Assembly: GCA_964540855.1 (NCBI GenBank)
Contig: CAZIOI010000002.1
Coordinates: forward strand, 1-44,362
Length of the DNA stretch: 44,362 nt
Direction of reading: 5' to 3'
Source: an uncultured Candidatus Saccharibacteria bacterium
GTDB lineage: Bacteria > Patescibacteriota > UBA1384 > DTJR01
Shown here: positions 40 through 43,366 of the stretch, in pieces
Layout: each line of letters begins with the position of its first letter
How positions within the stretch are numbered: the stretch's first letter is position 1
Notes under the pieces: generated by a model
Told to the model about the DNA's origin: nothing
Database searches by the model: none
The model's input: the letters and a program-made list of their open reading frames with translations, nothing else
Translations under genes and position numbers: made by a program

Positions 40-540
40 TTATTCTTTGTAAGAACCAAGGTGGCAAAGTGCCACCGCCACAGCATCAATCGTATCGTCT
101 TGGGTGATATTGCAATTTTTAACTTGAAGCGTCACCATCTTGGTCATCTGCTCTTTGGTAGCATGACCATAACCAGAGACCGAGAGTTTTATGACGTTTG
201 GCTTATATTCAAAAATCTCCAGTTTTGCTCGTTTAGCAACCAGCATCGCCACACCGCGAGCGTGAGCCACGGATATACCGGTTTTAACATTTTTCACAAA
301 AAAGATTTCTTCGATCGCCAGTTCTAAGGGTGAATATTTCTTTATAACTTTTTCTAGCTCCGAGGCAATTAGCTCCAACCTGTCTGGTAGCGGAGTGTTG
401 GCCTTAGTTTCAACACAGCCACAATCAAGAAGGCTGATTGTCCGCCTTTTGCGCTCATCTAACGCCGACTTGACTATCGACCAGCCACAACGCCCAGTCC
501 CCGGATCTACGCCCAATACAACCTTGGATTTATTTGTCAC
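40..540 (-). CDS. ruvC: Crossover junction endodeoxyribonuclease RuvC
   Basis: 166 aa with the N-terminal VLGVDPGTGRCGWSIV motif typical of RuvC. It sits directly downstream of yebC, which is the conserved order. Confidence 0.93.
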   Translation of the reverse strand: MTNKSKVVLGVDPGTGRCGWSIVKSALDERKRRTISLLDCGCVETKANTPLPDRLELIASELEKVIKKYSPLELAIEEIFFVKNVKTGISVAHARGVAMLVAKRAKLEIFEYKPNVIKLSVSGYGHATKEQMTKMVTLQVKNCNITQDDTIDAVAVALCHLGSYKE

Positions 541-1369: not shown

Positions 1370-1398
1370 TTGACATCGGGTATAATTGGCGGTAGAGT
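1370..1398 (+). promoter_or_regulatory. Sigma70-like promoter for GC-rich island 1 (TTGACA-17-TAGAGT)
   Basis: TTGACA at 1370-1375, a 17-nt spacer and TAGAGT at 1393-1398, about 65 nt upstream of the island ORF. Confidence 0.4.
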
Positions 1399-1462
1399 TT
1401 CCTGATTTAGCACATTACCAAGGGTTGCTTTTGCAGCCCAACGATAAACGGAGGTGCGCATT

Positions 1463-1858
1463 ATGCGCCCAACGAAACTTAGCAGTATTGCCGTGGTCGC
1501 CCTCGTGGCGACCCTCATGGTCGTAGCCTGCGCCGTTCCGGCGCAGGCCCAGCTCGGCATCCAGGTCCAGATCGGGCCCGGATACAACTCGCAGGGCCCA
1601 CTGCAGCCTGTTGTGGTGCAGTGGTCAGATGGGACGACTTCTGTGGCATGGGTGCCCGCGCCCCAGCCGCAGATCGTTGTCCCCGTTCGGCCGCAATGGC
1701 AGCAGCCCTGGGGCTGCCAACCACCCCCGCCACCATGCTGGGGCGGACCACCTCCTCCCTTTTTCGACGCCCCCCGTCGTGGCGGCTCCCACGGCGGCGG
1801 ACACCATGACGGTGGAGGCCGGATCCGCTCCGGCGGACCCAGCCGCCACCCACGCTGA
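1463..1858 (+). CDS. GC-rich island 1: secreted Pro/Gln/Trp/Gly/His-rich protein, no recognised family
   Basis: GGAGG (1450-1454) lies 8 nt before the ATG at 1463; a GTG at 1454 is an alternative start. The N-terminus has a signal peptide (KLSSIAVVALVATLMVVACAVPAQA/Q). The C-terminus is PPPPPCWGGPPPP...GGSHGGGHHDGGG. Codon usage is unlike the neighbours. Confidence 0.6.
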   Translation: MRPTKLSSIAVVALVATLMVVACAVPAQAQLGIQVQIGPGYNSQGPLQPVVVQWSDGTTSVAWVPAPQPQIVVPVRPQWQQPWGCQPPPPPCWGGPPPPFFDAPRRGGSHGGGHHDGGGRIRSGGPSRHPR

Positions 1859-1998
1859 CACCACAGCCGCGGGTGAGCTTCTGTTCCCGTCATCCGCGGC
1901 CCCACATCTTCGGTCGGTTGACCACGGTTCACACCCCCGGAACCGCGCCCAATGGTCTTCCGACCCTCCTGCGGGACATCACCTGTCCCGCGTCACAC

Positions 1999-2046
1999 GG
2001 CCCGAGCGGAGAGTATGCCCACTCTCCGCTCGGGCCACCTTGTTTA
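1999..2046 (+). terminator. Intrinsic terminator of island 1
   Basis: A perfect 16-bp stem (ggcccgagcggagagt / actctccgctcgggcc) with a 6-nt loop, followed by a T-containing tail (accttgttta). Confidence 0.7.
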
Positions 2047-2050
2047 TAAA

Positions 2051-2935
2051 CTAGTTCGCCGCTTGCCAACCATTTTCGGTCAAATCAAATTCAACGCTCC
2101 CCACCTCATCCGTCCTGAATATTTTTGCACCGAGATTTTTATAAAAATCAATTGTCTCTTTCGCCGGATGACCATAACGATTCGGCTGACCGACTGAAAT
2201 CACCGCATATTTGGCAGCAATTTTTTCCAGTAAGTTCTCACTGATACCATTACTCGACCCGTGATGAGAGGCTTTTACAATCTCGGATTTCAGTATCGTC
2301 TCAAGGTTAGCGCCAGCCACCGCATCCAGAGCTTTATTTTCAGCATCGGCGAGCATCATCACATCGGCATCGCCGGGCGCGTCAAATTTCATAACCAGAG
2401 AACTGTCATTTGATGATAAATCACCAACCTGATCCTTATTAGGCCACAGAATATCAACAGAAAAATATTCTCCAAGCGATACTTCATCACCAACGCCAAG
2501 TGTAAATTCGGAAATTTTTTGCTCATCAATCTTTTTGGCAATTCTCTGGTATGTTTTTGATTCAGCTTGTTTACCAGACGTGTATAGATTATCGATCTTG
2601 TACGAGTCCAAAATATGCTCGAATCCTCCGATATGATCCAAATCTGGGTGGGTCAAAAAAACATATTCCAACTCTCTATCCGAGGGCGGCATCACGGCTG
2701 CAAGCTTGTCCAAGACTCCTTCGTCCGGTCCGCCGTCAATCAATATTTGTACGGATCCCGGCAAGCTGAAAACCGCCGAATCACCTTGACCCACATCTAA
2801 AAAGAAAACTTTTGCTAACGTGTCAGAATCGGGACTTGCCTTTGCCGACCCGAAATAATAGACCCAAATACCCGAGCACAGCAATAACAGCGCAATGGCA
2901 ATATATTCAAATTTTATTTTTCTGAGCTTTGTCAT
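2051..2935 (-). CDS. comEC: ComEC/Rec2-type metallo-beta-lactamase domain protein (C-terminal part of ComEC as a separate ORF)
   Basis: Contains FLDVGQGDS, LTHPDLDHIGG and ASHHGS, the MBL motifs of the ComEC C-terminal domain. It has one N-terminal TM helix. Confidence 0.85.
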   Translation of the reverse strand: MTKLRKIKFEYIAIALLLLCSGIWVYYFGSAKASPDSDTLAKVFFLDVGQGDSAVFSLPGSVQILIDGGPDEGVLDKLAAVMPPSDRELEYVFLTHPDLDHIGGFEHILDSYKIDNLYTSGKQAESKTYQRIAKKIDEQKISEFTLGVGDEVSLGEYFSVDILWPNKDQVGDLSSNDSSLVMKFDAPGDADVMMLADAENKALDAVAGANLETILKSEIVKASHHGSSNGISENLLEKIAAKYAVISVGQPNRYGHPAKETIDFYKNLGAKIFRTDEVGSVEFDLTENGWQAAN

Positions 2936-4346
2936 AAATCATCGACAAATATACAATGATCATCGATACGATAACATAGTATGTGATCAAACCCGTAAGA
3001 CCGAACTGAATACTCTTGAAATTCAGAGTCTCAAAGGCAGACGATATCTCAATGACCTTCTTTATATATAATACAGGCAAACTAAAAAAAGTACTCGCAA
3101 CCAGCGCCGCTTTGAAGTTAATCAAAGCAATCGCAAAACCGACAAAAACCGCCAGCATCGCCAGTGGCACGATTGGCAAAATAAAAATGTTCGAGACAAG
3201 ACCGATGAGGCTGATTCGACCAAATTGATACAACAGCACGCCAAAACAAAACAATTGCGCCATTAGGCTTTCTGCAAAAACAGTCGCAATAGTCGAGAAC
3301 CATTGAGAGTCCTTGACAAAATATGAAATTTTTTGCGAGTAGATAATTCCGACCGTAGCCAAAAAGCTTAGTTGAAAACCAATATCGAAAATAATAAAAG
3401 GGTTAATAATCATCATTATAAGTCCCGCCAATACCAGTAAATTCATTGGTGAACCTTTCCTGCCAACCATTTTGGCGATAATTGCCGTAGACCCCATAAT
3501 AGCCGCGCGTACTACCGACGAGGGAAACCCGGTCAAGAAACAAAATATAATCAAAATCAGGATACTCAAGTAAAATGCCCTGTTCTTCCCGATCGCACCC
3601 CGAAGCAGATTAAAAAGTCCAACCAAGATAATCGAGATATTATAGCCCGATACAGCCGTGATATGCACAAGCCCGGAGTCTTTAATTTTTTCATCAAAAA
3701 TCTTCGAAAAATTCGGATCGCCAAAAATCAGACCCTTTGCCAATTGCCCGAGATCACCGGGCATTAACACGTCGAAAATAGAGTCGAGCCTTTCTCTGGC
3801 GGCGTTGAAATAATTTTTTAAAGAAAATCCCGAAGATATTATCCGGATCTCGTCCGTTTGAGCAATTTGATCCGTCGAATATTTTGCAAAATAATACTTG
3901 CCCATTTTCCGCTCCCGTGTGATAGCTCCTTCACCGACACAAATTAGAAGCATATCGGAAATTTTATAAGGCAATTCTTTTGCGGTTTTAACGATCAAAT
4001 TTCCGGCCGAAGAACTTACCGCAAGTTCTATGCCAAATGACGACTCGCGGATGTCTCGCAATTTAAATTCGCCGCAACCGTTAAAGTTGTCTATCGGACC
4101 AAGCAACCTAAAACCGCAAGCGAACAGTATTCCGGCATACAGCACAACAGCGACAAGAGCCACAGAAAACATTTTGTTTAACAAAAAAGTGGCAAGCAAA
4201 ACCAGCGCAACCGACAAAATAAACAAAAACATTTTTCTGTTATTTAGATCAAAACTCGCGCCAAGGAAAATTCCAACCGACGCAAAGAGCATTAAACACA
4301 CCGGCAAATCGATTTGAGCAATTTTTTTTGACAGCCGCCGGATCAT
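2907..4346 (-). CDS. comEC: ComEC/Rec2 competence channel, membrane part (DUF4131 plus Competence domain)
   Basis: 479 aa and polytopic. The central GYNISII...FCFLTGFPSSVVRAAIMG region is typical of the ComEC competence domain. It overlaps the MBL ORF by 29 nt. Confidence 0.85.
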   Translation of the reverse strand: MIRRLSKKIAQIDLPVCLMLFASVGIFLGASFDLNNRKMFLFILSVALVLLATFLLNKMFSVALVAVVLYAGILFACGFRLLGPIDNFNGCGEFKLRDIRESSFGIELAVSSSAGNLIVKTAKELPYKISDMLLICVGEGAITRERKMGKYYFAKYSTDQIAQTDEIRIISSGFSLKNYFNAARERLDSIFDVLMPGDLGQLAKGLIFGDPNFSKIFDEKIKDSGLVHITAVSGYNISIILVGLFNLLRGAIGKNRAFYLSILILIIFCFLTGFPSSVVRAAIMGSTAIIAKMVGRKGSPMNLLVLAGLIMMIINPFIIFDIGFQLSFLATVGIIYSQKISYFVKDSQWFSTIATVFAESLMAQLFCFGVLLYQFGRISLIGLVSNIFILPIVPLAMLAVFVGFAIALINFKAALVASTFFSLPVLYIKKVIEISSAFETLNFKSIQFGLTGLITYYVIVSMIIVYLSMIYDKAQKNKI

Positions 4347-6879: not shown

Positions 6880-8775
<1,896 letters not shown>

Positions 8776-8792
8776 TATCTGCTAATATAGAG

Positions 8793-8830
8793 AAAAGCCC
8801 CGGACGCGAAGCCGCTTGTCCGGGGCTTTT
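8793..8830 (+). terminator. dnaK intrinsic terminator
   Basis: aaaagccccggac / gtccggggctttt forms a 13-bp stem that includes the A and T tracts. Confidence 0.8.
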
Positions 8831-8868
8831 CTGGTTAATGCAGAAATTAAGGTTTATTTGTGGGTAGT

Positions 8869-8985
8869 GTCGCTAAAGCGACATATTTCTAACTTGGTAT
8901 CTTTTGACTTACAATTTTTACTTAACAATTTTTAATTTTGCATTGTGATTATACGTTTTGCCTTTTTCGTTATACGTTTTGAATT
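8869..8985. repeat. Dispersed intergenic repeat copy (GTCGC-hairpin module, third copy of the 65-bp module, GTTATACG arms)
   Basis: gtcgctaaagcgac at 8869-8882. 8890-8954 is about 85% identical to 37485-37549. It is followed by gattatacgttttgcctttttcgttatacgtttt. Confidence 0.75.
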
Positions 8986-9010
8986 ATTTTGTTGTGGTAA
9001 AATTGTATTG

Positions 9011-9721
9011 ATGAAAAAAATCTTTTTGGTTTTTGTGGTTGTAATATCAGTGATGCTTACTGGTTGTAGCTGGCAGAAAAAATCCTCTGCTACGGTTTCC
9101 GATTCCGATCAGGTCACAGACGTCGAAGCCGAGGCGACTGTTGCCGCGACAGATAGCGGTGAAGATGATACTTCGCTGACCGATTCTCTCGCTGATTCAA
9201 CATCGAGTGCAGACACGTTTAATCTCGATTTTGAAAGTCAAAAAATCACCGACCTCTTCGATCAGGCTTATCAAGAAGCCTATTCCGATGCCAACGCAAC
9301 GCTCGCCGGTAAAGCCAAATTTTGCAATAGCCTTGCCGAATTCACACCGGCACAATCGCCGGATAGTGCAAAAATCAGTTTCTTCTTCACCTCGGAAGAT
9401 CAGAATGATTGGTATTGGGTCGGGCAAAAAGACCTACTTGAGAATAAAAAGATTAGGCTTTTTGCTGCAAAAAGAGATTTTACAGACATAGCCTGCACGT
9501 CCGTTACGACAGATCAGCTGACTGCCAACTATGCCGATGCGCTCAAAACTGTCGCTGAGTCGAAAAAAACAACTTTCACCGCAGACGAACCCTCCAAAAT
9601 TAAAATTTATATCGAAGGATACACGTGGAAAGTAGAATTTTGGAAATCCGACTCGACAATCACCTCGCAGACAGCCCCCATCACCGCCACAACTACGACC
9701 GCCACAAGCACGGGCGAATAG
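9011..9721 (+). CDS. Lipoprotein, function unknown
   Basis: MKKIFLVFVVVISVMLTGC is a signal peptide with a lipobox. The upstream part of the 8945 ORF lies in repeat DNA. Confidence 0.7.
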   Translation: MKKIFLVFVVVISVMLTGCSWQKKSSATVSDSDQVTDVEAEATVAATDSGEDDTSLTDSLADSTSSADTFNLDFESQKITDLFDQAYQEAYSDANATLAGKAKFCNSLAEFTPAQSPDSAKISFFFTSEDQNDWYWVGQKDLLENKKIRLFAAKRDFTDIACTSVTTDQLTANYADALKTVAESKKTTFTADEPSKIKIYIEGYTWKVEFWKSDSTITSQTAPITATTTTATSTGE

Positions 9722-9797
9722 TTATCTCAATAATGTAAAGCACTCTTTACTAATCTTGAGATAAATAGTAAAATATTATGCGTTAACTTTTATTTAT

Positions 9798-10433
9798 ATG
9801 TCACAAAATTTTTACGAAACCCTCGGTATCGAGAAATCCGCTTCGGCTGAAGAAATAAAAAAGGCCTATCGGAAACTCGCACTGGAGCATCACCCAGATC
9901 GCGGTGGAAGCCAAGAAAAGTTTAAGCAGCTAAATGAAGCTTATCAGGTCCTTTCTGATCCGCAAAAGAGAGCTGCTTACGACCAATTTGGCTCCCAAGC
10001 CTTTTCTAATGGTGATTTTAGAGGTGGACAAAATTCCGGCGGAGGGCAAGGAGGCTTTGGCGGATTCGAGGGATTTGACTTTTCAGGTGGCTTTGGCGGA
10101 GGTGGTTTGGGAGATATTTTTGGAGATTTTTTTTCGCAAGCTTTTTCAACAATTCAGGCCGAAGTCGAAATCACACCTGCCCAAGCAGTTCTTGGCGATA
10201 AAATGAACCTCAGAGTTGACGGACAAAGTGTTGAATTAGATATTCCTGCCGGCGCGCAAGACGGGACACAATTTCGCATTCGAGGCGCAGGCAGAGCCGC
10301 CAGAAACGGTCAAAAAGGCGATCTAATCATCTCAATCAGAATCAAAATGCCGAGAAAATTGTCTCGTGAACAAAAAGAACTCTGGGAACAGCTCAAAAAG
10401 CTCGATCAAAATCGTTCCTCGTGGTGGAGATAG
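9798..10433 (+). CDS. dnaJ: J-domain co-chaperone (DnaJ/CbpA-like, no zinc-finger domain)
   Basis: The J domain has HPD (LEHHPDRGG), then a G/F-rich linker and a single C-terminal beta domain. The whole 211 aa contains no Cys. Confidence 0.85.
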
Positions 10434-16302: not shown

Positions 16303-16354
16303 TTGACTTATTGAAATATTCTTGTACTATGATCAGATTCGCAAAGTTGCGAAT
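16303..16354 (+). promoter_or_regulatory. Island 2 promoter (TTGACT-16-TACTAT) plus the 8-2-8 operator palindrome ATTCGCAA-AG-TTGCGAAT
   Basis: TTGACT at 16303-16308 and TACTAT at 16325-16330. The perfect palindrome at 16337-16354 lies just downstream of the -10. Confidence 0.5.
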
Positions 16355-16374
16355 ACAAAACAGGGGGGATCGCC

Positions 16375-16911
16375 TTGGCGCACGCCGAAAATGATACCAA
16401 GTTTGTCGTTCTGACAAAGAACGGCAGGCCAGCAGGGTGGGAACTACGCAAAGGCGATAGAGTCGCCGAAAGCGGGCGGCTATATCCAGTCAAGAGCGCA
16501 TGGGGTACACTTCTGCTCCACCTCCCCAGCATGAGACCCGGCTCATATAACAAGGATGAGCTGAGGACTGTGTTGGGCTGGGACGGCAACAGGCTAGAGG
16601 TTCTGACCAGAGCCGCCATCGAGCGGTTCGCAAGAGAGCACCCAGACGTAATGAAAATCCGTGGCAAAACCGTCGCGGTTCTCATCGAAATCGGCCTCGA
16701 AGAATTCGAGGCTGGCGAGCATATCTCGCCTTGTAAACAGACTCGGTGCACACCAGCGGCCCGAGCAAGCAAGACTCGAACTAGACAAGACCTCTCGGGG
16801 GTGTCGAACGAGAATTTGCTTGATCTTCTCGTAAGTTGCCTCCAGGATGCCGAGCAAGGCGGTTGCGCCGAAGCGGTTCGGCGCGAGATCCTCAGAAGAA
16901 TGCACCACTAA
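16375..16911 (+). CDS. GC-rich island 2, gene 1: 178-aa cytoplasmic protein, no recognised family
   Basis: A TTG start follows GGGGGGA by 5 nt. The residue composition is balanced with amphipathic segments (DELRTVLGWDGNRLEVLTRAAIERFAREHPDV). The overlapping antisense ORFs look like GC artefacts. Confidence 0.6.
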   Translation: MAHAENDTKFVVLTKNGRPAGWELRKGDRVAESGRLYPVKSAWGTLLLHLPSMRPGSYNKDELRTVLGWDGNRLEVLTRAAIERFAREHPDVMKIRGKTVAVLIEIGLEEFEAGEHISPCKQTRCTPAARASKTRTRQDLSGVSNENLLDLLVSCLQDAEQGGCAEAVRREILRRMHH

Positions 16912-16938
16912 CAGAAAGCAATCTGCACGAGAGGTAGA

Positions 16939-17127
16939 ATGATGGCCGAGAAAATGGCAAGGAGCGCTCTGCTGTGGTTAGTAGGAGGGTTCATAGCCCA
17001 TCTTGCCAATATTGCCCCCGAAGCAATCACGTGGTGGGTGATGGGCGCCAGCTTATTGGTTCTTGCCACAAGTGGCACCATCATGCTGTTGCGAGCCTTC
17101 CGTCTGGAAATTCGCAAGCATAAGTAA
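16939..17127 (+). CDS. GC-rich island 2, gene 2: 62-aa two-TM protein with a basic C-terminal tail (holin-like or small membrane effector)
   Basis: Two hydrophobic helices (ALLWLVGGFIAHLANI and WWVMGASLLVLATSGTIMLL) are followed by RAFRLEIRKHK. GAGAGG precedes the ATG. Confidence 0.55.
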   Translation: MMAEKMARSALLWLVGGFIAHLANIAPEAITWWVMGASLLVLATSGTIMLLRAFRLEIRKHK

Positions 17128-17130
17128 TCC

Positions 17131-17190
17131 GGCCCCGCGCCTTGGATCGCGACAGCGACACCAAGGCGCGGGGCCGCCCGTTCATCTTTT
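17131..17190 (+). terminator. Island 2 intrinsic terminator
   Basis: A 15-bp perfect stem (ggccccgcgccttgg / ccaaggcgcggggcc), then ...catctttt. Confidence 0.8.
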
Positions 17191-22197: not shown

Positions 22198-22224
22198 TTA
22201 GGATAAAGACTAAATAATGCAAAA

Positions 22225-22318
22225 CTTATAACGAAAAACGTATAAACACAATGTAAAACTTAAAATAAAAAAACTATCGTCGCAAAGCGACACCATAGTT
22301 ATACGTTTTACGTTTTAC
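22225..22318. repeat. Dispersed palindromic repeat (CGTATAA arm, GTCGCAAAGCGAC hairpin, CACCATAGTTATACG arm)
   Basis: The same module order is seen at 26411-26517, 30470-30618, 33941-34032 and 37352-37471. Confidence 0.75.
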
Positions 22319-22381
22319 TTTAACTTATTTGCTTTTCAATCTAAACCGTAATACTATCAAACTAATAATTAAGGAGGGTCT

Positions 22382-26334: not shown

Positions 26335-26410
26335 TCACAACAATCGTCACTTACTCCAGATATGCTTAATATATGATTCCTGTATGTGCAAAAGGCATAG
26401 TAGCGCAAAA

Positions 26411-26517
26411 TGCAAAATGTAAAACGTATAAACACAGCGTAAAATTCAAAAATTAATACATAACCGTCGCGAAGCGACACCATAGTTATACATTTTTCGT
26501 TTTACATTATACGTTAA
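26411..26517. repeat. Dispersed palindromic repeat copy that abuts the lepA stop
   Basis: aaacgtataaacac...gtcgcgaagcgacaccatagttatac...tatacgttaatta. The final tta is the lepA stop codon on the minus strand. Confidence 0.75.
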
Positions 26518-28254
26518 TTAGTACTTCAACAATTTCACAAACACATCTGTCGGCAGGCTCACGCGGCCCAGCTTTGCCATTTTACGTTTACCCTTCTTTT
26601 GCTTTTCCAACAGTTTTCGCTTTCGGGTCACATCTCCGCCATACAATTTCTCTGTCACATCTTTTCTAAAAGCTTGTATCCTCTCTGAAGCGATAATCCT
26701 ACCGCCAATAGCCGCCTGAATCTTTACCTCAAAGTTTTGTCTCGGTATAAATTCTTTCATTTTCTCCACCATTTGCCGGCCAACCTTGTCGACAAACCCC
26801 TTAAAGACTGTTCTTGAGAATGCATCAATTTTTTCTTCGGATATGTAAAAGTCAATCTGGACCAGATCACCGGCTCTAAATCCAATAAAATCATAATTTA
26901 TCGACCCGTAGCCTTGCGTTGCACTTTTCAGCTGATCGTAAAAATCCACGATCACCTCGCCAAGCGGCATTTCGTAGTCTAAAATCACTTTCTCTTCGAG
27001 ATGGCGAATATCTTTTTGCTCGCCACGACGCGACTGCAGAAGTTCAATTACACGTCCCAAATATTGTTTTGGCGTGATCAATTCCGCCTTAACCCACGGC
27101 TCCAGCGTCTCTTGCCCCTCTCTCTTATATTCGACGGTTGGCGTGGTAACGACTAGGTCAAGGTCATACTCCCTCTCCAGCCTTTCCTTAACAATTTCAA
27201 GGTGGAGCATTCCCAAGAAACCGCACCTAAATCCAAAGCCAAAAGCGGTCGAATTAGCTGGCTCATAAATAATTGACGAGTCAGATAATTTGAGCTTTCC
27301 CAAACTCTCCCTCAATCTTCCGTAGTCCTCACCGCTTGTGCAATATATTTCAGCATACACCATCGGACGCGGCTCCTTGTAGCCGCTCAATGGTTCAACC
27401 GCCAAAGAATCTTGTTCGCTGGTAACCGTAATCGTATCGCCAACTCTCGCCTGCGAGACATCCTTAAACGTCGTGACAACAAAACCAATTTCGCCAGTTG
27501 AGATAGATTCTTGCGATCTCAACCCCAGCTGAATCGCCCCCACGTCGGAGGCGATCGTCTTCTGATCCTTAAAAACAAATTTTATTTGGTCTGATCTGGC
27601 AATTTGACCGTCAAAAACTCTAACATAAGCGACAACCCCCCTGTAATCATCAAAGTATGAATCAAAAACCAGTGCCCGCGCACAGTCAACCTGTGATTTT
27701 CTCGGCGCCGGAACAGTTAAAATGATTTTTTCGAGCAGTTCACGCACTCCCTTACCCGTCTTGGCCGAGATAAAGCTAACGTCGTCGGGGTCGCAATTTA
27801 TGATCTCCGCTATCTCAAAAGCCACCTCTTCGGGCCGTGATTCTGGCAAGTCGATTTTATTCACAGCCGGAATAATCACCAGTCCGGCTTTTTTGGCGAG
27901 CTCCAGATTTGCCAGTGTTTGCGCCTGAACACCTTGGGTGGCATCCACCAAAAGAATCGCTCCTTCAACCGCCTGCAAACTGCGCGACACCTCGTAGGAA
28001 AAATCAACATGCCCCGGAGTATCTATGAGATTTAGCTCATACGGCTTATTATCGATAATCCATTTCATTCTCACCGGCTGAAGCTTAATAGTGATGCCGC
28101 GTTCACGCTCAAGATCCATGGAGTCAAGCACCTGATCAAGCATTTTTCGCTTTTCTACTGTTTCGGTCAACTCCAAAAACCGGTCTGCCAACGTTGACTT
28201 ACCGTGATCTATGTGAGAAATAATACAAAAATTACGAATATTCTCTGTTTCCAA
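26518..28254 (-). CDS. lepA: Translation elongation factor 4 (LepA)
   Basis: IRNFCIISHIDHGKSTLADR, NLIDTPGHVDF and the LepA-specific C-terminal domain. Confidence 0.97.
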   Translation of the reverse strand: METENIRNFCIISHIDHGKSTLADRFLELTETVEKRKMLDQVLDSMDLERERGITIKLQPVRMKWIIDNKPYELNLIDTPGHVDFSYEVSRSLQAVEGAILLVDATQGVQAQTLANLELAKKAGLVIIPAVNKIDLPESRPEEVAFEIAEIINCDPDDVSFISAKTGKGVRELLEKIILTVPAPRKSQVDCARALVFDSYFDDYRGVVAYVRVFDGQIARSDQIKFVFKDQKTIASDVGAIQLGLRSQESISTGEIGFVVTTFKDVSQARVGDTITVTSEQDSLAVEPLSGYKEPRPMVYAEIYCTSGEDYGRLRESLGKLKLSDSSIIYEPANSTAFGFGFRCGFLGMLHLEIVKERLEREYDLDLVVTTPTVEYKREGQETLEPWVKAELITPKQYLGRVIELLQSRRGEQKDIRHLEEKVILDYEMPLGEVIVDFYDQLKSATQGYGSINYDFIGFRAGDLVQIDFYISEEKIDAFSRTVFKGFVDKVGRQMVEKMKEFIPRQNFEVKIQAAIGGRIIASERIQAFRKDVTEKLYGGDVTRKRKLLEKQKKGKRKMAKLGRVSLPTDVFVKLLKY

Positions 28255-30423: not shown

Positions 30424-30469
30424 AAACTGATCTTAGCATTTTGTACCCTTAAACGGAAGGGAGATGTCA

Positions 30470-30768
30470 GCGTATAACTAAAAACGAAGAACGTATAATC
30501 ACAATAGATTAACGTATAACGTAAAAGGCAAAACGTATAATCACAACGCATAATTCAAAACCTACAAACTATCGTTGCAAAGCAACGCAATAGTTATACG
30601 CTATACGTTTTACGTTATGAATCAATTTGTCATTGCGCGGTTTTGGGGCGATCCAAAACCTAAACCTCTGTTTAACATTTTAACCCGGAGGACGCGGCAA
30701 TCTAAAAACAATTGTCGCAAAGTGACACCATAGTTATACCTTTTGCATTTTACGTTATACGTTATTAT
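30470..30768. repeat. Cluster of dispersed repeats upstream of murJ
   Basis: Several CGTATAAC/CGTATAAT arms, the hairpins gttgcaaagcaac and gtcgcaaagtgac with CCATAGTTATAC, and GTCATTGCG...GCGGCAATCT at 30629-30703. Confidence 0.75.
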
Positions 30769-33857: not shown

Positions 33858-33940
33858 AAAAATCCTCAAAAACTTTGCATCTTTGACTTTATACTTAAAT
33901 TCAAAATTGCACAAAGGAACGAGATAGTCAAAGCCAAACC

Positions 33941-34032
33941 AACGTATAACGAAAAAGGTAAAACGTAAAACCACAATAAACTAATGTATAACGTAAAACG
34001 AAAAACGTATAACTATGGTGTCGCTTCGCGAC
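33941..34032. repeat. Dispersed palindromic repeat copy
   Basis: aacgtataacgaaaaagg...acgtataactatggtgtcgcttcgcgac. Confidence 0.75.
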
Positions 34033-34121
34033 GATATTTGTGATTTAGTGTTTAGAACTTATTTGCTCAAACGTCATTTGTAAAAATGCGATTCTATCAA
34101 GTTTCTGCTAATCTTTTATTA

Positions 34122-35692: not shown

Positions 35693-35714
35693 CGCAAAAT
35701 TAAAAACGAAAAAC

Positions 35715-35779
35715 GTATAACCACAATTCAAAATTATTAAGTACTAAGTAAGAATTGTAAGTCAAAAGACACTAAGTTT
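35715..35779. repeat. Left copy of the 65-bp inverted repeat that brackets the ncRNA island
   Basis: The reverse complement of 37485-37549 matches with 2 mismatches in 65 (hand alignment). Confidence 0.85.
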
Positions 35780-35780
35780 A

Positions 35781-35892
35781 GTCATTCCTGACTTGCTGTG
35801 CCCTGCGTAGCCCTGCCTACCGGCAGGCAGGCTTGGCGAAGTGGGGTCATTGCGAACCCGCGCAGCCACTGGCGAAGTGAGTGTGGCAATCT
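35781..35892. repeat. 66-nt GTCATTCCTGAC... module plus a GTCATTGCGA...GGCAATCT module
   Basis: 35781-35846 equals 41218-41283 with 2 mismatches in the same orientation. 35846-35892 belongs to the GTCATTGCGAG family. Confidence 0.85.
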
Positions 35893-36189
35893 CGCATCAT
35901 ATTCTTTTATTGACATTCCTGTGAAAACAGGAATCTTATCTTATTCGGGCTTCGCTTTAGTTAATAAAGAAACAACCAACAAGAAAGCAAGCTCCAAACA
36001 AATAACAAATCTCAATAATCAAACAAAAAATAATAAGCGTTTGTTTGTATATTTGAATATTGAAGTTTGTTTGGTCATTGTTTCTTGGTTATTGTTAGTT
36101 TTAAGCATTTTCGACACGCTTCATACCATGTGTCGCTAGCGCGACTTTTTTAAGTTTAAAAACCATAAATCCTAAAATTTCTATGTTTA

Positions 36190-36238
36190 CTCTATAAAAC
36201 AGCGAAGGCCACGGAGCTCCGAGTGGAGACGTGGCCTT
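36190..36238 (-). terminator. Terminator of the island 4 transcript
   Basis: On the minus strand, aaggccac-N18-gtggcctt is followed by cgctgtttta. Confidence 0.6.
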
Positions 36239-37297
36239 TGGTTGGGTCCCGCTAGGCGGGACCCCGGAGTAATATGGGTGGATGAATGTCGGAGGTGGAC
36301 AAAGGCGCGAACCCTGTCCACCCCCTTGGGCCTGTGTGCCCAAAGATGATCGCGTCCCGCCCGAAGGTGACTCGGGCGGGGTTGATGAAAAACTGCCTTC
36401 CAGCGGCTACGGGGGCTTCCCGTCATCATCCCGCTGTCGGCAGGGTGCGCCCCCGACCCGTGGTCGGGGGTACTTCCCTTGGCTCCGGTTCGATTAGGCG
36501 ACCTGCAAGGTCGCCTCCCCGACGTCAGATTTCATTCGGTCGTCCTTCCGGCCCGCCTCCTGGCGGGCGCGAGGGGATCTGGTAACCCGTCTCGTCCGCG
36601 CTCCCCTCAGAGAACGGAGTCTCAGGCGGGATTCCGTCAGATGGGCGTTGGGCCGGTAGTGCGATGCAAAGTGCAATCCAGCCCTCATCATCGTCGCAGG
36701 TGGCCCAACGCCCGTCCGTACGACTCCACGACGACTGATCGAACGCCCGGCCGAAGCACGAGACTCCAGCAAGGTCGCCAGAGTGTAGCTACATGACCGA
36801 GCGTCGCCACTTGAACGCACTGTTTGCACTCCTGATCGCCCCTACAGGGCGATCGGCCACTAACGTCCCACGAGATCCGACTCCTTCTCTTACACATCTG
36901 GCTGGAGTCGGTCTCGAGAAAGATGATACGTCCCCCGTTCGGAGTCCCCACATACCGCAGACTAGTGAAGTCACACCGAATCTGCCTTGTGAAGCCCTTA
37001 CATCAAACAGCAGAAAACCTTGGCCGCCATCAATAGGCGGCAATTTGTCTCCGCAAAGCAACATCAGAACAGCCGGAACAGGCAAGACCCGAACTCGTCC
37101 TCCTTGGGAGAAGGAATACCGTTCGAGTAACCGCCGCCATCTCCTCGCGGAGACAGCCGTTTACCGGCCGGCCTAAGGCCGCCCGGGTCTGACGAGACGA
37201 CTAGATTGTCACATCTAGCACGGCGGTGTGTCTGCCAACATCAATCAACCCTCCTTTCCCAGATCATCCACCATTTCAAGGTTCGTACAAATACGAC
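36190..37297 (-). ncRNA. Candidate large (about 1.1 kb) GC-rich structured ncRNA, class unknown (island 4)
   Basis: No credible ORF exists in any frame, and many perfect 6-12-bp helices are present. Minus-strand promoter-like and terminator-like signals frame it. The strand and ends are inferred, not proven. Confidence 0.5.
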
Positions 37298-37351: not shown

Positions 37352-37471
37352 AATCGTTGTTAATGTATAACTAAAAACGTATAGCGTATAACTATGGTGT
37401 CGCTTCGCGACAATCGTTGTTAATGTATAACGTAAAACGTATAGCGTATAACTATGGTGTCGCTTCGCGAC
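37352..37471. repeat. Two tandem 60-bp copies of the dispersed repeat unit
   Basis: 37352-37411 and 37412-37471 are identical except for the dinucleotide ct versus cg/ta versus gt in ...gtataac(ta/gt)aaaacg... Confidence 0.9.
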
Positions 37472-37484
37472 AATATTTATTTTA

Positions 37485-37549
37485 AACTTAGTGTCTTTTG
37501 ACTTACAATTCTTACTTAGTAATTATTAATTTTGAATTGTGGTTATACA
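37485..37549. repeat. Right copy of the 65-bp inverted repeat, abutting the dnaE stop
   Basis: This is the inverted partner of 35715-35779. The dnaE stop codon begins at 37550, the next base after the repeat. Confidence 0.85.
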
Positions 37550-40500
37550 TTATTCGTTAGCGAAGGTTTTCTTCAGTTCCTGTTCGAACTCATCTGTCAA
37601 GTCCACTTTTGACCTCGTCTTGGCAAACTTGAAATCGCCATTTTGTTTATATGCGAGAACCAACAGACTTTCGCCCGAAAAGCGTTCAACAATTTCTTTT
37701 AATTTTAAAATTTTGTCCTTTTTAGTCGTTTTGGGCAAAATAACATAAACCGTCCCATCATCTTTGAGCGCAAACTGCCCTTTTTCAAAGGCATGTTTCA
37801 GTTTGTCGGTTATATTTTTTGTCTCCGATTCTTCGGTAAGGTCAATTTCAACAATTTTGTCTTCTACTGGGTCAACGGTTACAACGTGACTAGAGGCAAA
37901 TTTTGTATTGACAGAGGCAAATTCCGGCGCAGCAATTTTCGCCGGATCAAACTTTTCCGTTCGCTCGGCCAATACCTTGACCTCCCCGTCTTTTGTCGAA
38001 ATCTTGCCGGTGACAAGCACAATATTATCCGCCACCCAAAGGTCTGCTTCAGCCTCTAGGGTTTTCGGAAAAATAAGCACCTCCGATTTACCGGAGAGGT
38101 CTTCTATAGTCGCAAATGCCATGGCGGCGCCGGATTTTGTATTGATCTTTTTTATCGCCTGAATAATTCCACCGACTTTGACTTTTTTGCCGTCCATCGA
38201 CAAATTAAGGTCCGTCAGAGAATGGCTGACCGCCATCTTGAGTTTCGCGCCGTTTTCTTTGAGCGGATGCTCGCTGATATAAATTCCCAGTAGTTCCTTT
38301 TCCCAAACAAGTTTATCAGCCTGCTCGGCCGGTTTGACCTCTGGCAGATCGAGCTTGCCGATTTCGATATCGCCCGAGAGAACCTCACCGAACAATCCGA
38401 TTTGCGAGGATTTTATCTGCTTGGTCGTATCCTGAATCCTCTTGGTGATCGTTTCCATACCTTCTAATACTTGGTTTCGCTCAATCAGCGAATCCAGCGC
38501 GCCGGATTTTGCCAAGGCCTCCAAAATCTTTTTGTTTAACACCGATCGAGTGGTCTTGGCGGCATCAGCCTGATCTACCGTCTCTTCGACATCCGTTTTG
38601 CTAAGCCGGTCAATAAAATCTTCAAAACTCTTGTACGGACCGTTTTTTTTGCGCTCGCGAACAATCACTCGCGCCGGATTTGTGCCTATATTTTTGATCG
38701 CCGCAAGACCAAAGCGAATATCGCCCGTCTCCTTGACCACGCCAAAATCGACAAAGCTTTCGTTGACATCGGGCGGCAAAACATTGATACCCATCTTATT
38801 GCATTCGTCAATCTCGATCGAAATCCTATCAATATCGTCCAAATCGTTAGTCAAAAGCGCCGCCATAAAGCACTGCGGATGATTCGCCTTGAGATACGCC
38901 GTCTGGTAAGCGATCATGGCATAACAAACCGCGTGCGACTTGTTAAACCCATAGGCCGCAAAATCTTGAAGCATCGAGAAAACTTTTTTGCCGTCCGATT
39001 CGCTGACCCCGTTTTTTTGCGCGCCCTTGATAAATTTTTCTTTCATCTCGGCCATCAGCTCGGCAATTTTTTTACCCATCGCTTTTCTAAGCTTGTCAGC
39101 CTCGCCGCCGGTAAAACCGGCCATATCGCGGGAGATCTGCATAACTTGCTCCTGATAAACCGGAATACCGTAGGTAACTTCGAGAGCTTTTTTGGTCATT
39201 TCGTGCGGATATTCTATCGCCTCGCGACCGTTTTTACGAGCAATAAACGTGTCGATAAATTGCATCGGACCCGGCCTGTAAAGCGCCACCATGACAGCCA
39301 CATCATCGAGCGTGGTCGGCTTGAGCTCTTTGATATAGCGCTTCATACCGGCGGACTCCAGCTGAAACACTCCCGTTGTCCTTCCGTCGCCCAATAACTT
39401 GAATGTTTTTTGGTCGTCCAACGGAAGGTTGAAAATATCTATCTTTTTGCCGTCCACCGCCTCGATAATTTCCAGCGCGCGCTCAATGGTCGTAAGGTTT
39501 GCTAGCCCCAAGAAGTCCATCTTTAACAGTCCCAGCTCCGCCACCGGATACATCGAATACTGTGTCACCTGTTTGACACCCTCTTTTTGCGCCTGCTGCA
39601 GTGGCACATAACAGGTCAACTCGTCCTTGGTAATAACAAAAGCGCTAGCGTGCTGGGAGGCGTGGCGCACCGTCCCTTCGAGCTGTATCGCCATATCCAT
39701 TAGTCGCTTGGCACGAGGATCTTTTTGGTAAACTTCTTTGAGTTCAGCCGAGTCCTTGACCGATTTTTCCAGCGGAATGTGTTTGCCTTGCACCGGCGGC
39801 GGCACGATCTTGGAAATCGCGTCCACCTCGGCATAAGGATAACCGAGCACACGGCCGACATCGCGCACAGCAGCTCGCGCCGCCATTGTTCCAAAAGTAA
39901 TAATGCCGGCAACCCGTTGCTCGCCATATTTTTGCACAATATAATCCAAAACCTCGCTGCGGCGGTGATCGGCAAAATCAAGGTCGATATCAGGCATTTC
40001 ATGGCGATCGGGATTCAAAAATCTCTCAAAAAGCAGACTATACTTTAGAGGGTCGGCATCGGCGATATGCGTTAAATACGCCACCAACGATCCCGCCGCG
40101 CTACCGCGACCCGGACCGACCATGATCCCTTGCTGCTTCGCCCAACTGACATAGTCGGAGACAATCAGAAAATAACTCGAGAAACCCATACTGCAAATTA
40201 CCGACAATTCATATTCAAGACGTTCGTTTATTTTTTTGAGCTCTTCGGCAGACGCGTTCGGGTAACGATCTTTTATCCCGTTTCGGCACAAATCTTTGAG
40301 ATACTCGGCATCTGTTTTACCCTTGGGTAGTGGAAAAGTCGGCAGCAAGTTTGTTTCAAATGGTATTTCGAGGTCGCATTTATCGGCAATCTCTTTTGTG
40401 TTAGTCAGCGCCTCTGGCACTTCTTTAAACACCTTCGCCAAATCCTGCGGATCGCGCAATGAAAAATCGCCGTTGTAAGTCATTCTGTTTTTGTCTTCGA

Positions 40501-41197: not shown

Positions 41198-41217
41198 TTT
41201 TTTAAATTATTTTCTTT

Positions 41218-41478
41218 GTCATTCCTGACTTGCTGTGTCCCGCGTAGCCCTGCCTACCGGCAGGCAGGCTTGGCGAAGTGGGGTTCAGGAATCTTGGTAT
41301 TGTCATTGCGAGCGAGCGTAGCCCCGTGAAGCCTTAAGTGTAATGGGGCGAAGTGAGCGCGGCAATCTCTTCGCATCGTTCTTTTTACACTTTTCATTAA
41401 CATTTTGATTTTTAAGATTTAATTTTTAATTTTACGTTGTGGTTATACATTTTTCGTTTTACGTTATACGTTATTCAC
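41218..41478. repeat. Repeat cluster upstream of dnaE
   Basis: The 66-nt GTCATTCCTGAC... module is at 41218-41283 and is closed by gttcaggaat. GTCATTGCGAG...GGCAATCT is at 41302-41368. A partial 65-bp module and GTTATACG arms lie at about 41420-41478. Confidence 0.8.
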
Positions 41479-41507
41479 TACTTCCTCTTATTTAGAACAT
41501 AGCATTT

Positions 41508-41556
41508 GGGGACAAAAACGCAAAAGGCCCCGCCATACTCGTCGTATGGCGGGGCC
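41508..41556 (-). terminator. Island 5 intrinsic terminator
   Basis: On the minus strand a 13-bp perfect stem (ggccccgccatac / gtatggcggggcc) is followed by ttttgcgttttt. Confidence 0.75.
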
Positions 41557-41581
41557 TGATGGGCTGGACGGGAAAACAAAA

Positions 41582-42187
41582 CTACTCGAACATCCTCTTA
41601 GCGACCTTGTCGGCCGCCGATTCACTGCGTGGCTTGTCGAAGTGTTGGCGAACAGCATCAAACAAGCTGTTTGCCCAATTCTCCGCAGCCAGCCCCGCGG
41701 ACTTGGCCGCCCACAACAGCTCTGTGAACAACGAAAGAGCCCTCGCCATGTCGCTCTGCGTAATCTCGCAGGGCAACTTGACGAGCTCGCCCACGACAAC
41801 GAAGTCGCGTGTGAGCTCGCCCGAGATGTCGTCAGCCGTGCCGGAGGCGACCTTCAACATCTGCCGCCAGTCGCCATTCTTGAAACGGCTTGGCGACCCC
41901 ACCGGCAACGGAGTCCCGTCGCCAATCGTGACGCGTACGAAAACGAACCTGCCCCCTTCCTCATCTGCCCCGAGCACGAGGTCGAGGTTGAGGGCGGCCG
42001 CAACCCACTGCTCCAGCCAGCTGCCCTCGGCAGCTGCAACGTCACGCTCACCCTGCAGCCACCGGACAGCATCCATCACCGCGGCCTTGATCGTGGCGAT
42101 AACCCCAAACCGCCCCTCCTCCGCCATCTTCCGCAGACCGGCCGAAAACCTGATCTCCCTGTTCTCCACGTAACTGTCTCCCATCAT
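41582..42187 (-). CDS. GC-rich island 5, gene 2: 201-aa cytoplasmic protein, no recognised family
   Basis: The composition is balanced and the SD GGGGAG lies within the repeated leader. The plus-strand ORFs over the same DNA are Arg/Pro/Ser-rich artefacts. Confidence 0.6.
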   Translation of the reverse strand: MMGDSYVENREIRFSAGLRKMAEEGRFGVIATIKAAVMDAVRWLQGERDVAAAEGSWLEQWVAAALNLDLVLGADEEGGRFVFVRVTIGDGTPLPVGSPSRFKNGDWRQMLKVASGTADDISGELTRDFVVVGELVKLPCEITQSDMARALSLFTELLWAAKSAGLAAENWANSLFDAVRQHFDKPRSESAADKVAKRMFE

Positions 42188-42189
42188 CT

Positions 42190-42226
42190 GTCAAGATACT
42201 CCCCTTCGCGCGCTGGCTTGGGGGTT
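42190..42226 (-). promoter_or_regulatory. Repeated 5' leader element, copy A (upstream of the 201-aa gene)
   Basis: gtcaagatactccccttcgcgc at 42190-42211 is identical to 42831-42852. The adjacent ggct(t/c)gggggtt is also shared. The minus-strand sense is CCCCC...GCGCGAAGGGGAGTATCTTGAC. Confidence 0.6.
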
Positions 42227-42816
42227 TACTTGCGCAATTGCCCTCGACCACGACCAACCCTCTCAAACGTCTGGTCCACTCCGGCGCGCCCCTCAACGAT
42301 CCAACGGGGAGTCTCCTCACCGTCGCTAACACGCCCCTCCGCCATCTCCGCTGCCTCTCGAGCAAGCTTGAGGTAGTGCCTGAACACATCCTCAAGCTCC
42401 TCCCGAAGGTAAGCCACGCCATCGATGATCTCGCAGTCCTCAGCGAGAAAATGATAAAGCTCCCAGCTGGCCGCCTCTCGCAGAACATTAGATACTTCCT
42501 GGTAACTGCCGAGGGTATGCAGCTCAACGGGGATCTTGAGCCAACGCCGGCGATTGAACCGGACCTTGGCGGTAACATCATTCGCCCGGTCACCAACACA
42601 GCGCTGCCTCCGTCTGCTTGGACAGATGGCAAAGCAAACCTCAAAGTGTCTGCTAACAAACCTGTCCAACCAGCCGCCAACTGCAACAGCGGCAGCTAAC
42701 TGGTTTTCATCAAGGAGCCACTTCAACCGCTTAAGAATGGCCCCCTTGACTAAAGACATGGCCTCGGGCTTTTTGGCCTTCAGCTGCTGCATCAATCGCT
42801 CCGAGAGTCTCGTCAC
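42226..42816 (-). CDS. GC-rich island 5, gene 1: 196-aa cytoplasmic protein, no recognised family
   Basis: A GTG start lies 7 nt after AAGGGGG. The sequence has amphipathic helical segments (SWELYHFLAEDCEIIDGVAYLREELEDVFRHYLKLAREAAE). Confidence 0.6.
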   Translation of the reverse strand: MTRLSERLMQQLKAKKPEAMSLVKGAILKRLKWLLDENQLAAAVAVGGWLDRFVSRHFEVCFAICPSRRRQRCVGDRANDVTAKVRFNRRRWLKIPVELHTLGSYQEVSNVLREAASWELYHFLAEDCEIIDGVAYLREELEDVFRHYLKLAREAAEMAEGRVSDGEETPRWIVEGRAGVDQTFERVGRGRGQLRK

Positions 42817-42830
42817 GGCTACCCCCTTAC

Positions 42831-42867
42831 GTCAAGATACTCCCCTTCGCGCAAAGGCTCGGGGGTT
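42831..42867 (-). promoter_or_regulatory. Repeated 5' leader element, copy B (upstream of the 196-aa gene)
   Basis: Carries the same 22-nt core and the 12-nt flanking match as copy A. Confidence 0.6.
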
Positions 42868-42895
42868 GTTGATTCCCTGTTAAAGGCATCGAGAG

Positions 42896-42924
42896 ATGAT
42901 ACAACTTGCCCCCTTGAAAGTCAA
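42896..42924 (-). promoter_or_regulatory. Putative island 5 promoter (TTGACT-17-TATCAT), divergent from rpmA
   Basis: The reverse complement reads TTGACT (42919-42924), a 17-nt spacer, then TATCAT (42896-42901). Confidence 0.45.
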
Positions 42925-42997
42925 TCCTTTTTTTGCTAAAATTCTTCTTGCTGGTCAAATCTGCGCCAGTTGTTTGTTTTTTATCCGGTTTATAACC

Positions 42998-43366
42998 ATG
43001 GCACATACAAAAGCAAAAGGTACGACAAAATTAGGTAGAGATTCCGAAAGCAAGCGCTTAGGCGTTAAAATTTATGGTGGCTCAGCGATTAAATGCGGCC
43101 AAATCATCATTCGCCAGAGAGGCACTTCTTATCTAAACGGCGAAGGTGTCAAACGCGGCGGCGATGATACGTTATTTGCCATTCGAGATGGAATCGTAAG
43201 GTTTAAAAAAGTTCGTTATACCAATTTTACAGGCAATACCAAGACCAAGCAGATTGTTTCTGTGGAGCCAAAGGAAAAACCGGTAGCCAAAAAGTCAACC
43301 GAAAAATCTCAGGTTAAGACCAAGATCGTGGCTGAAAAAAAGGAAGTCGCAAAAAAGAAAAAATAA
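42998..43366 (+). CDS. rpmA: 50S ribosomal protein L27 with a Lys-rich C-terminal extension
   Basis: [28 protein letters not shown]...RQRGT is followed by a ~35-aa KEKPVAKK-type tail. Confidence 0.93.

Follow-up and report, generated by a model that had tools for sequence, protein, structure and literature searches.

Layout of the island

The window analyzed here is a stretch of 44,362 nucleotides (nt) on contig CAZIOI010000002.1, from an uncultured bacterium of the Patescibacteria. At positions 41508-42924 lies a small island of two minus-strand genes, each preceded by a copy of the same leader element. The element is read as a stem-loop that is specific to one protein family and is repeated for each cistron of a pair of tandem paralogs, with a role at the RNA level. 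Its intercistronic copy would have been converted recently, and the coding cassettes would have been exchanged between lineages. As a whole, this reading is judged somewhat better than even.

On the minus strand, the island is composed of a promoter, a 5' untranslated region (5'UTR) of ~75 nt, gene 1, a short spacer, gene 2, and a terminator. The promoter is sigma-70-like (TTGACT-17-TATCAT, 42924-42896), as proposed in an earlier note on this DNA, and its -35 box abuts that of the divergent rpmA promoter (TTGAAA-17-TAAAAT, 42914-42942, plus strand). The related metagenome loci referred to here are labeled L001, L005, L006, L007, L008, L009, L013, L021, L050, L051, L055, L062, and L070. The promoter core, TTGACTTTCAAGGGG, is identical in L001, L005, L050, L051, and L070. 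All of these except L070 also keep the fifth G of the run. The 5'UTR contains hairpin 1 (42871-42890, minus strand; GAUGCCUUUAACAGGGAAUC), whose stem is kept across loci while its loop (UAAC, GUUUU, AAAU, or AAAC) and stem length vary. The intrinsic terminator (41557-41525, minus strand) has a T-run and a stem of 14 bp, 10 of them G-C, where the earlier note had counted 13; it is ~96% conserved relative to L001.

The island is divergent from rpmA, as previously described, and rpmA (Pfam Ribosomal_L27, E 4e-27) is followed by rplS. The earlier note attached meaning to this position, which in most bacteria is occupied by rplU (L21). This does not hold. No L21 gene is detectable in the window or in any fetched locus, although the L27 control search worked, and rpmA and dnaE are divergent neighbors 87-506 bp apart in L007, L008, L009, L013, and L021. 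Because these relatives have rpmA and dnaE directly divergent without L21, the island is best described as an insertion into the rpmA-dnaE intergenic slot and not as a replacement of rplU.

In the relative L006 (DnaE identity 71%), the same slot contains two moderately GC-rich open reading frames (ORFs; 8222-9997) that are unrelated to the island family. Each has its own promoter and terminator, and ACATTTGYATGGAGRAGA is found upstream of both. Orphan genes appear to have landed in this slot repeatedly. In the window, the rpmA ORF stays open for 34 codons upstream of its conserved MAHTKAKG start (42896-42997, plus strand), and gene callers annotate a protein of 156 amino acids (aa). This extension spans the divergent promoters and is probably not translated.

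The DnaE adjoining the island is 71% and 62% identical to proteins from metagenome-assembled genomes labeled Saccharibacteria and Berkelbacteria, respectively, and the other relatives found are likewise Patescibacteria. By these sequence similarities, the host is a Berkelbacteria-like bacterium of the candidate phyla radiation (CPR; Patescibacteria).

The two genes and their protein family

Gene 1 (42816-42226, minus strand) starts at GTG and encodes an orphan protein of 196 aa. Gene 2 (42169-41582, minus strand) is its paralog and encodes an acidic orphan protein of 195 aa from a conserved GTG, or 201 aa from an ATG at 42187. Both ORFs exist as originally called, at 196 and 201 aa; homologs place the start of the second at the GTG. 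Substitutions between the window and orthologous loci are in excess at third codon positions, and the ratio of nonsynonymous to synonymous change (omega) comes to 0.34 in gene 1 and 0.40-0.50 in gene 2. GC content at third positions is 0.64-0.79 in the island genes versus 0.40-0.48 in rpmA and rplS. The ORFs therefore have the homologs and the coding signal whose absence the earlier note had named as grounds for doubting them.

In a pairwise alignment, the two proteins have weak similarity over their N-termini (E 1e-4). Profile-profile comparison with hhalign extends this to 175 columns at 98% probability (E 2.9e-13), and the order of helices and strands is alike in the AlphaFold2 models of both (mean pLDDT 80 for gene 1 and 77 for gene 2). 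Genes 1 and 2 are full-length, ancient tandem paralogs, and they arose by duplication of a unit made up of leader element, Shine-Dalgarno (SD) sequence, and gene.

The family is very small: among 5.8 billion clusters and 1.84 billion representatives, the searches found only the proteins P0003-P0006, P0008, and P0009, each encoded divergently from rpmA with the same synteny, and a gene-2 profile found no relative among the GTDB species representatives. The ORFs of L006 and the downstream ORF of L051 were considered as members and rejected as not homologous. Pfam, PADLOC, PHROGs, and NCBIfam gave nothing significant for the two proteins and their orthologs, including no match to a defense or toxin-antitoxin family. 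A sequence profile search of the PDB gave no match for the proteins. The structure search that the earlier note had proposed was equally negative: with both AlphaFold2 models, Foldseek against PDB and BFVD gave E values of at least 0.07 throughout and TM scores below 0.3 for the lowest-E matches. No RNA-binding domain is detected in either protein, and the gene-2 proteins are acidic (isoelectric point 4.3-5.1). Literature searches on GC-rich or hypervariable islands in CPR bacteria and Berkelbacteria turned up nothing of relevance. The genes in this spacer, between the divergent rpmA and dnaE, form an orphan family that is lineage-specific and evolves fast.

The repeated leader element

The 22-mer GCGCGAAGGGGAGTATCTTGAC (minus strand) occurs exactly twice in the window, at 42190-42211 and 42831-42852 (0 expected), which bears out the identical blocks described before. 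There is no further match in the window with up to three mismatches, and 0 of 100 shuffles gave any match. The additional similarity reported upstream of each block is also real, as the blocks lie within a direct repeat of 37 nt (family D15; 42190-42226 and 42831-42867) that is 89% identical. Here and at all other loci, the leader copy ahead of gene 1 is termed c1 and the intercistronic copy c2.

On the minus strand, c1 (42831-42867) is made up of AAC, a C-run (42865-42861), a 15-nt loop (GAGCCUUUGCGCGAA), a G-run (42845-42842), AG, and the tail UAUCUUGAC (42839-42831). The window's c2 (42190-42226, minus strand) is c1-type, with its C-run at 42224-42220, and starts at the final base of the gene-1 stop codon (TAA, 42228-42226). 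Across the family, the element has the form of a G-C-clamped stem-loop, with CCCCC, a loop of 10-15 nt (10, 13, or 15 nt), GGGG(G), and then a single-stranded UAUCUUGA tail. The two copies are out of register with their start codons: the 22-nt block ends 14 nt before the gene-1 GTG, and it ends 20 nt before the conserved gene-2 GTG, or 2 nt before the ATG at 42187.

A relaxed pattern was scanned over 917 kb, and a covariance model was run over the window (filters off) and over 666 kb of relatives. The pattern found no sites beyond those of this gene family. The covariance model matched c1 at 69 bits and c2 at 59 bits, with no other copy in the window (next match E 3.8), none after gene 2, and only the known copies in the relatives. 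The element is absent from the other intergenic regions of the window and from 43 loci of related Patescibacteria. In metagenomes of the Joint Genome Institute (JGI), the leader core gave 16 matches; the only real ones are L055 and L062, both L050-like loci, and the rest were rejected as unrelated GC-rich coding sequence. The leader core had 0 matches in viral contigs, and the promoter 26-mer had 0 in the JGI metagenomes. To judge from these scans, the leader element is specific to this gene family.

Two further features of the leader were considered and rejected. An internal promoter in the TTGAC tail lacks a -10 element at 16-18 nt in either copy. A 20-codon ORF (42889-42827, minus strand) begins at the probable transcription start site, 7 nt past the -10 element, spans c1, and ends 10 nt before the gene-1 start. 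It is not a family feature, because only the window, L001, and L005 have it (with UGA and UAG stops in L001 and L005), and L070, L050, and L051 have AUA in place of AUG.

Start codons and Shine-Dalgarno sequences

Each cistron has an SD sequence of its own that is separate from the element. The functional SD of gene 1 is GGGGG (42826-42822, minus strand), 5 nt upstream of the GTG at 42816, where orthologs have GAGGAG or AAGGAG. That of gene 2 is GGGAG (42182-42178, minus strand), 8 nt upstream of the GTG at 42169. The gene-2 orthologs all start at the corresponding GTG, with GGGAG or GAGGAG at the same fixed 8-nt spacing. These homologs indicate that gene 2 probably starts at GTG 42169 rather than at ATG 42187. 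In every copy, the element is followed, after 3-10 nt, by a second SD (GGAG, GGGAG, or GGGGG), which precedes the conserved start by 5-8 nt. The GGGG of the block is SD-like, yet it is the best-placed SD of neither gene.

The choice of start also changes the spacer. If gene 2 began at the ATG, the spacer would be 38 nt and would consist entirely of the element, as the earlier note stated. With the GTG, it is 56 nt and comprises the element plus a separate SD.

Predicted RNA structure

The isolated hairpin has a predicted free energy of -8.2 to -12.1 kcal/mol at 37 °C, and the potential for a stem between C-run and G-run is kept in all 10 copies that were compared. Nine copies were folded together with their surrounding sequence. 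In 6/9 contexts, the predicted partner of the C-run is the G-run of the element itself, at a probability of at least 0.78, and in most of these the SD remains at least partly accessible (mean SD unpaired probability 0.07-0.84). The C-run pairs with the true SD only in the window's c1 (probability 0.96, mean SD unpaired probability 0.02); in the remaining eight contexts, this pairing has a probability of ~0. A permissive Rfam scan of 41450-43000 gave chance matches only (E at least 0.26) and no family.

Since the stem positions are all invariant, the putative hairpin is derived solely from loops that are replaced or vary in length while the stem is retained, the same pattern that is observed in hairpin 1. 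In all three haplotypes with two genes (window, L001, and L070, among ~6 distinct haplotypes available in total), 0-1 nt separates the gene-1 stop codon from the c2 C-run. As the stop abuts the C-run, ribosomes terminating there should unfold c2.

Conservation of the two copies

Together with the promoter and hairpin 1, c1 is conserved in every homologous locus, including L050 and L051, where the proteins have no more than 36-37% identity with those of the window. Between the window and these two loci, the UTR p-distance is 0.24-0.29, versus a synonymous p-distance of 0.62-0.71 (saturated) in rpmA. Because the UTR distance is low while the synonymous sites of rpmA are saturated, c1, the promoter, and hairpin 1 are, by this measure, under purifying selection across the family.

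The intercistronic copy reads CCCCCGCCGUUGCGUGGGGUAUAUUGAG in L001 and CCCCCGAAGAUGUUUGAAGGGGGUAUCUUGAC in L070. In both, the loop is replaced, and CCCCC...GGGG(G)UAU(C/A)UUGA(C/G) is kept. The skeleton of stem and tail is therefore found ahead of gene 2 in 3/3 two-gene haplotypes, and the intercistronic copy would need only these parts. Conservation of the repeat in homologous loci thus applies in full to c1 and to stem and tail alone in c2 of L001 and L070. The earlier note had each gene carry the same leader, but this trait is not conserved.

The window's c2 differs by 1 nt from the c1 of L005 and of L070, by 4 nt from its own c1, and by 9-12 nt from its positional orthologs. Because it is c1-type in sequence and far from these orthologs, the perfect 22-nt identity most likely stems from a recent event of conversion or recombination, in which a c1-type copy would have come to occupy the c2 position, and not from selection site by site. 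The L005 leader was considered as a c1/c2 hybrid that would prove a deletion. It was rejected as proof, since c1 of L070 carries the same variants.

Probable allelic exchange at the locus

The flanks of the island and its coding sequences differ in divergence and in grouping. Between the window and L001, rpmA, rplS, and the promoter region are 91-100% identical and the terminator 96%, whereas nucleotide identity in the two coding sequences is only 62-85%. Synonymous divergence (dS) is 0.44-1.05 in the island versus 0.15-0.31 in rpmA and rplS. In the flanks, the window groups with L001 (96-100%) and L070 stands apart (73-86%). In gene 1, L001 and L070 group together (90%) and the window is at 68-69%, and in gene 2 all pairs are about equidistant (76-80%). 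The number of genes varies as well: a single gene follows the leader directly in L005 and L050, and there are two in the window, L001, and L070. The second ORF of L051 is unrelated to the family. Because the coding cassettes are mosaic relative to near-identical flanks and the phylogenies are incongruent, these data indicate probable allelic exchange of cassettes between lineages, anchored in the leader and flank on one side and in the terminator on the other.

The window also encodes a ComEC-like competence channel (Competence and Lactamase_B domains on adjacent ORFs, 2051-4346, minus strand) and RuvC (40-540, minus strand). The presence of both is compatible with DNA uptake and homologous allelic replacement.

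Role of the element

The most likely, though unproven, role of the element is that of a stem-loop placed just 5' of each ribosome-binding site (RBS), serving mRNA stability, insulation of the RBS, or as an operator. The hairpin would lock the SD-like G-run, and the true SD would remain in A/U-rich surroundings that, by prediction, are at least partly open in most copies. The hairpin could act for each cistron as an RBS insulator or a module of mRNA stability. With its conserved loop sequence, c1 may be an operator for a trans-acting factor. At c2, ribosomes that terminate at the gene-1 stop would melt the hairpin.

Several observations weigh against this account. The folding of both leaders, which the earlier note had proposed as a check, does not help it: the folding energies are no better than those of shuffled sequences (z -0.6 to +0.9), and RNAalifold finds no covariation, with invariant stem columns and an unfavorable covariation term. 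Every c1 copy keeps the loop sequence RAGCCnnnGCGC(GA)R, and a hairpin that served only as an insulator would have no need of this. Finally, the mosaic pattern is read from metagenome assemblies that may be chimeric at conserved segments; against this concern, the L001 haplotype was recovered in five independent assemblies.

The main rival to an RNA-level role is a function in DNA. The element would be a junction or anchor for cassette exchange, at which single-gene cassettes are added, deleted, or swapped, either by homologous recombination between leader copies or by a hairpin-directed site-specific or single-stranded DNA recombinase encoded elsewhere. The limits of the variable stretch fall at the 3' end of c1 and at the terminator, the gene number varies from one to two, the window's c2 is c1-type, gene-1 and gene-2 alleles assort independently, and the element combines hairpin potential with a fixed TTGAC tail, all of which would fit such a junction. 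However, long conserved flanks alone can explain replacement of the whole island in a ComEC-bearing organism, and the sharp boundary could merely mark the end of purifying selection. A junction would also sit poorly with the lack of a copy after the last gene, with the absence of attC-like core sites by inspection, and with scans that place the element at no other locus. Domain scans, which covered part of the window's ORFs, found no integrase or transposase among those scanned in the 44 kb. A DNA-level junction is regarded as possible but unlikely.

Rather doubtful is the view that c2 is a functionless by-product of recent duplication or conversion, and that only c1, as 5'UTR and region upstream of rpmA, has a function. 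It would account for the loop that is not conserved in L001 and L070, and conversion does explain the window's c2. It does not account for three independent versions of c2 that keep CCCCC, GGGG(G), and UAU(C/A)UUGA(C/G) right after the gene-1 stop, a skeleton retained while amino-acid identity in the surrounding coding sequences has fallen to 49-68%.

In the earlier note, each leader was an SD-sequestering switch, opened by temperature, by a small RNA, or by a protein, that co-regulates translation of both genes. A selected cis-element on each cistron, with stem potential in all 10 copies compared, survives from this proposal. Sequestration is not supported, because both genes have an SD of their own, at a suitable distance from the start, downstream of the element. 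The G-run AAGGGGAG is SD-like and would lie 11 nt upstream of the gene-2 start if this were ATG 42187, and the window's c1 is predicted to pair its C-run with the true GGGGG. This pairing is confined to that one context, however, the conserved GTG starts have their own SD sequences, and Rfam has no matching family. A thermosensor fits poorly, as the C5:G4-5 stem (-8 to -12 kcal/mol) is not marginally stable and is too stable for a thermometer. Such a switch is very unlikely.

Least probable of all, and close to speculation, is that the hairpin and fixed UAUCUUGAC tail are the recognition site of a functionally integron-like or HUH-like hairpin-directed recombination system, with its enzyme encoded elsewhere, that shuffles single-gene cassettes at a fixed place in the chromosome; if so, reduced CPR episymbionts would have a dedicated variation locus for a fast-diversifying GC-rich orphan family.

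A stem-loop acting in RNA remains the favored interpretation. On this interpretation, the element is an unannotated, family-specific leader RNA motif in the Patescibacteria, where cis-regulation is almost unstudied, and it accompanies an orphan protein family without detectable fold relatives. The locus also offers a concrete case of a compositionally atypical, recombining variable slot between the core genes rpmA and dnaE. The eye-catching perfect repeat would be a local conversion product and not a conserved dual riboregulator, which spares follow-up work on the thermosensor idea.

Other features of the window

The remaining window is ordinary chromosome that encodes RuvC, ComEC, GrpE, DnaK, DnaJ, a class II aminoacyl-tRNA synthetase (Pfam tRNA-synt_2), enolase, and LepA. 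A tRNA is the sole Rfam match at the gathering score.

Other GC-rich islands (GC 0.56-0.70 versus ~0.43 in the host) are located at 1370-2030 (plus strand), 16305-17180 (plus strand), and 36100-37200. The first two have a TTGAC-type promoter motif upstream, a strong terminator, and orphan ORFs. In the island at 1370-2030, the ORF encodes a Pro/Gly-rich protein of 134 aa with a signal peptide (1454-1858). The island at 16305-17180 has an ORF of 178 aa (16375-16911) followed by a membrane ORF of 62 aa. The third has no convincing ORF and no Rfam match, and is bordered on either side by a 76-nt inverted repeat (35705-35780 and 37483-37558).

Two repeat families are also present. A GC-rich repeat of ~130-170 nt is found at 35778-35900 and 41215-41365, with a 70-nt core that is 96% identical, and contains GTCATTGCGA(A/G)C...GGCGAAGTGAG. 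One of its copies lies between the island terminator and dnaE, and similar motifs follow the island in L050 and L051. The second family, AACGTATAACGTAAAACG... with a GTCGCTTCGCGAC hairpin, is abundant between housekeeping genes in both orientations, e.g., at 22215-22330, 26400-26520, 30468-30625, 33940-34045, 37352-37484, and 41408-41476.

Comparison with known systems

Stem-loops that stabilize or insulate mRNA are found in bacterial operons, e.g., the 5' hairpin of ompA and the repetitive extragenic palindromic (REP) stem-loops of malEFG. The element resembles these as a stable G-C-rich hairpin, located in the 5'UTR and between cistrons, just ahead of an exposed RBS and without conserved pairing to the SD. 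It differs in being tied to one tiny gene family, in the conserved c1 loop, and in the fixed UAUCUUGA tail. Repeats of the REP type and bacterial interspersed mosaic elements are dispersed genome-wide, whereas the element has two copies in 44 kb and none extra in the 666 kb of relatives.

Translational operators bound by their own gene product include the operator hairpin of the MS2 coat protein and the leaders of ribosomal-protein operons. Like these, the element is a family-specific hairpin with a conserved loop, immediately 5' of the RBS and repeated for paralogous cistrons. Unlike them, it precedes genes whose products have no detected RNA-binding domain, the gene-2 proteins being acidic.

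Integron cassette arrays share with the island a single promoter, a variable number of cassettes, and ORFs that lack promoters and have a repeated imperfect palindrome between them. In contrast to integrons, the ORFs here are paralogs and not unrelated cassettes, and a copy of the element precedes every ORF, the first included, with none after the last. RYYYAAC/GTTRRRY cores are absent by inspection, and the window ORFs scanned, which are not all of them, have no IntI or other recombinase domain.

O-antigen and capsule clusters with JUMPstart/ops are hypervariable, atypical loci that are replaced via conserved flanks and have a conserved 5'UTR element. The island is a miniature of two genes, is GC-rich and not GC-poor, and lacks the ops sequence. 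It shares with these clusters a GC content atypical for the genome, flanks of near-identical housekeeping genes, strongly divergent alleles, and a conserved leader downstream of the promoter.

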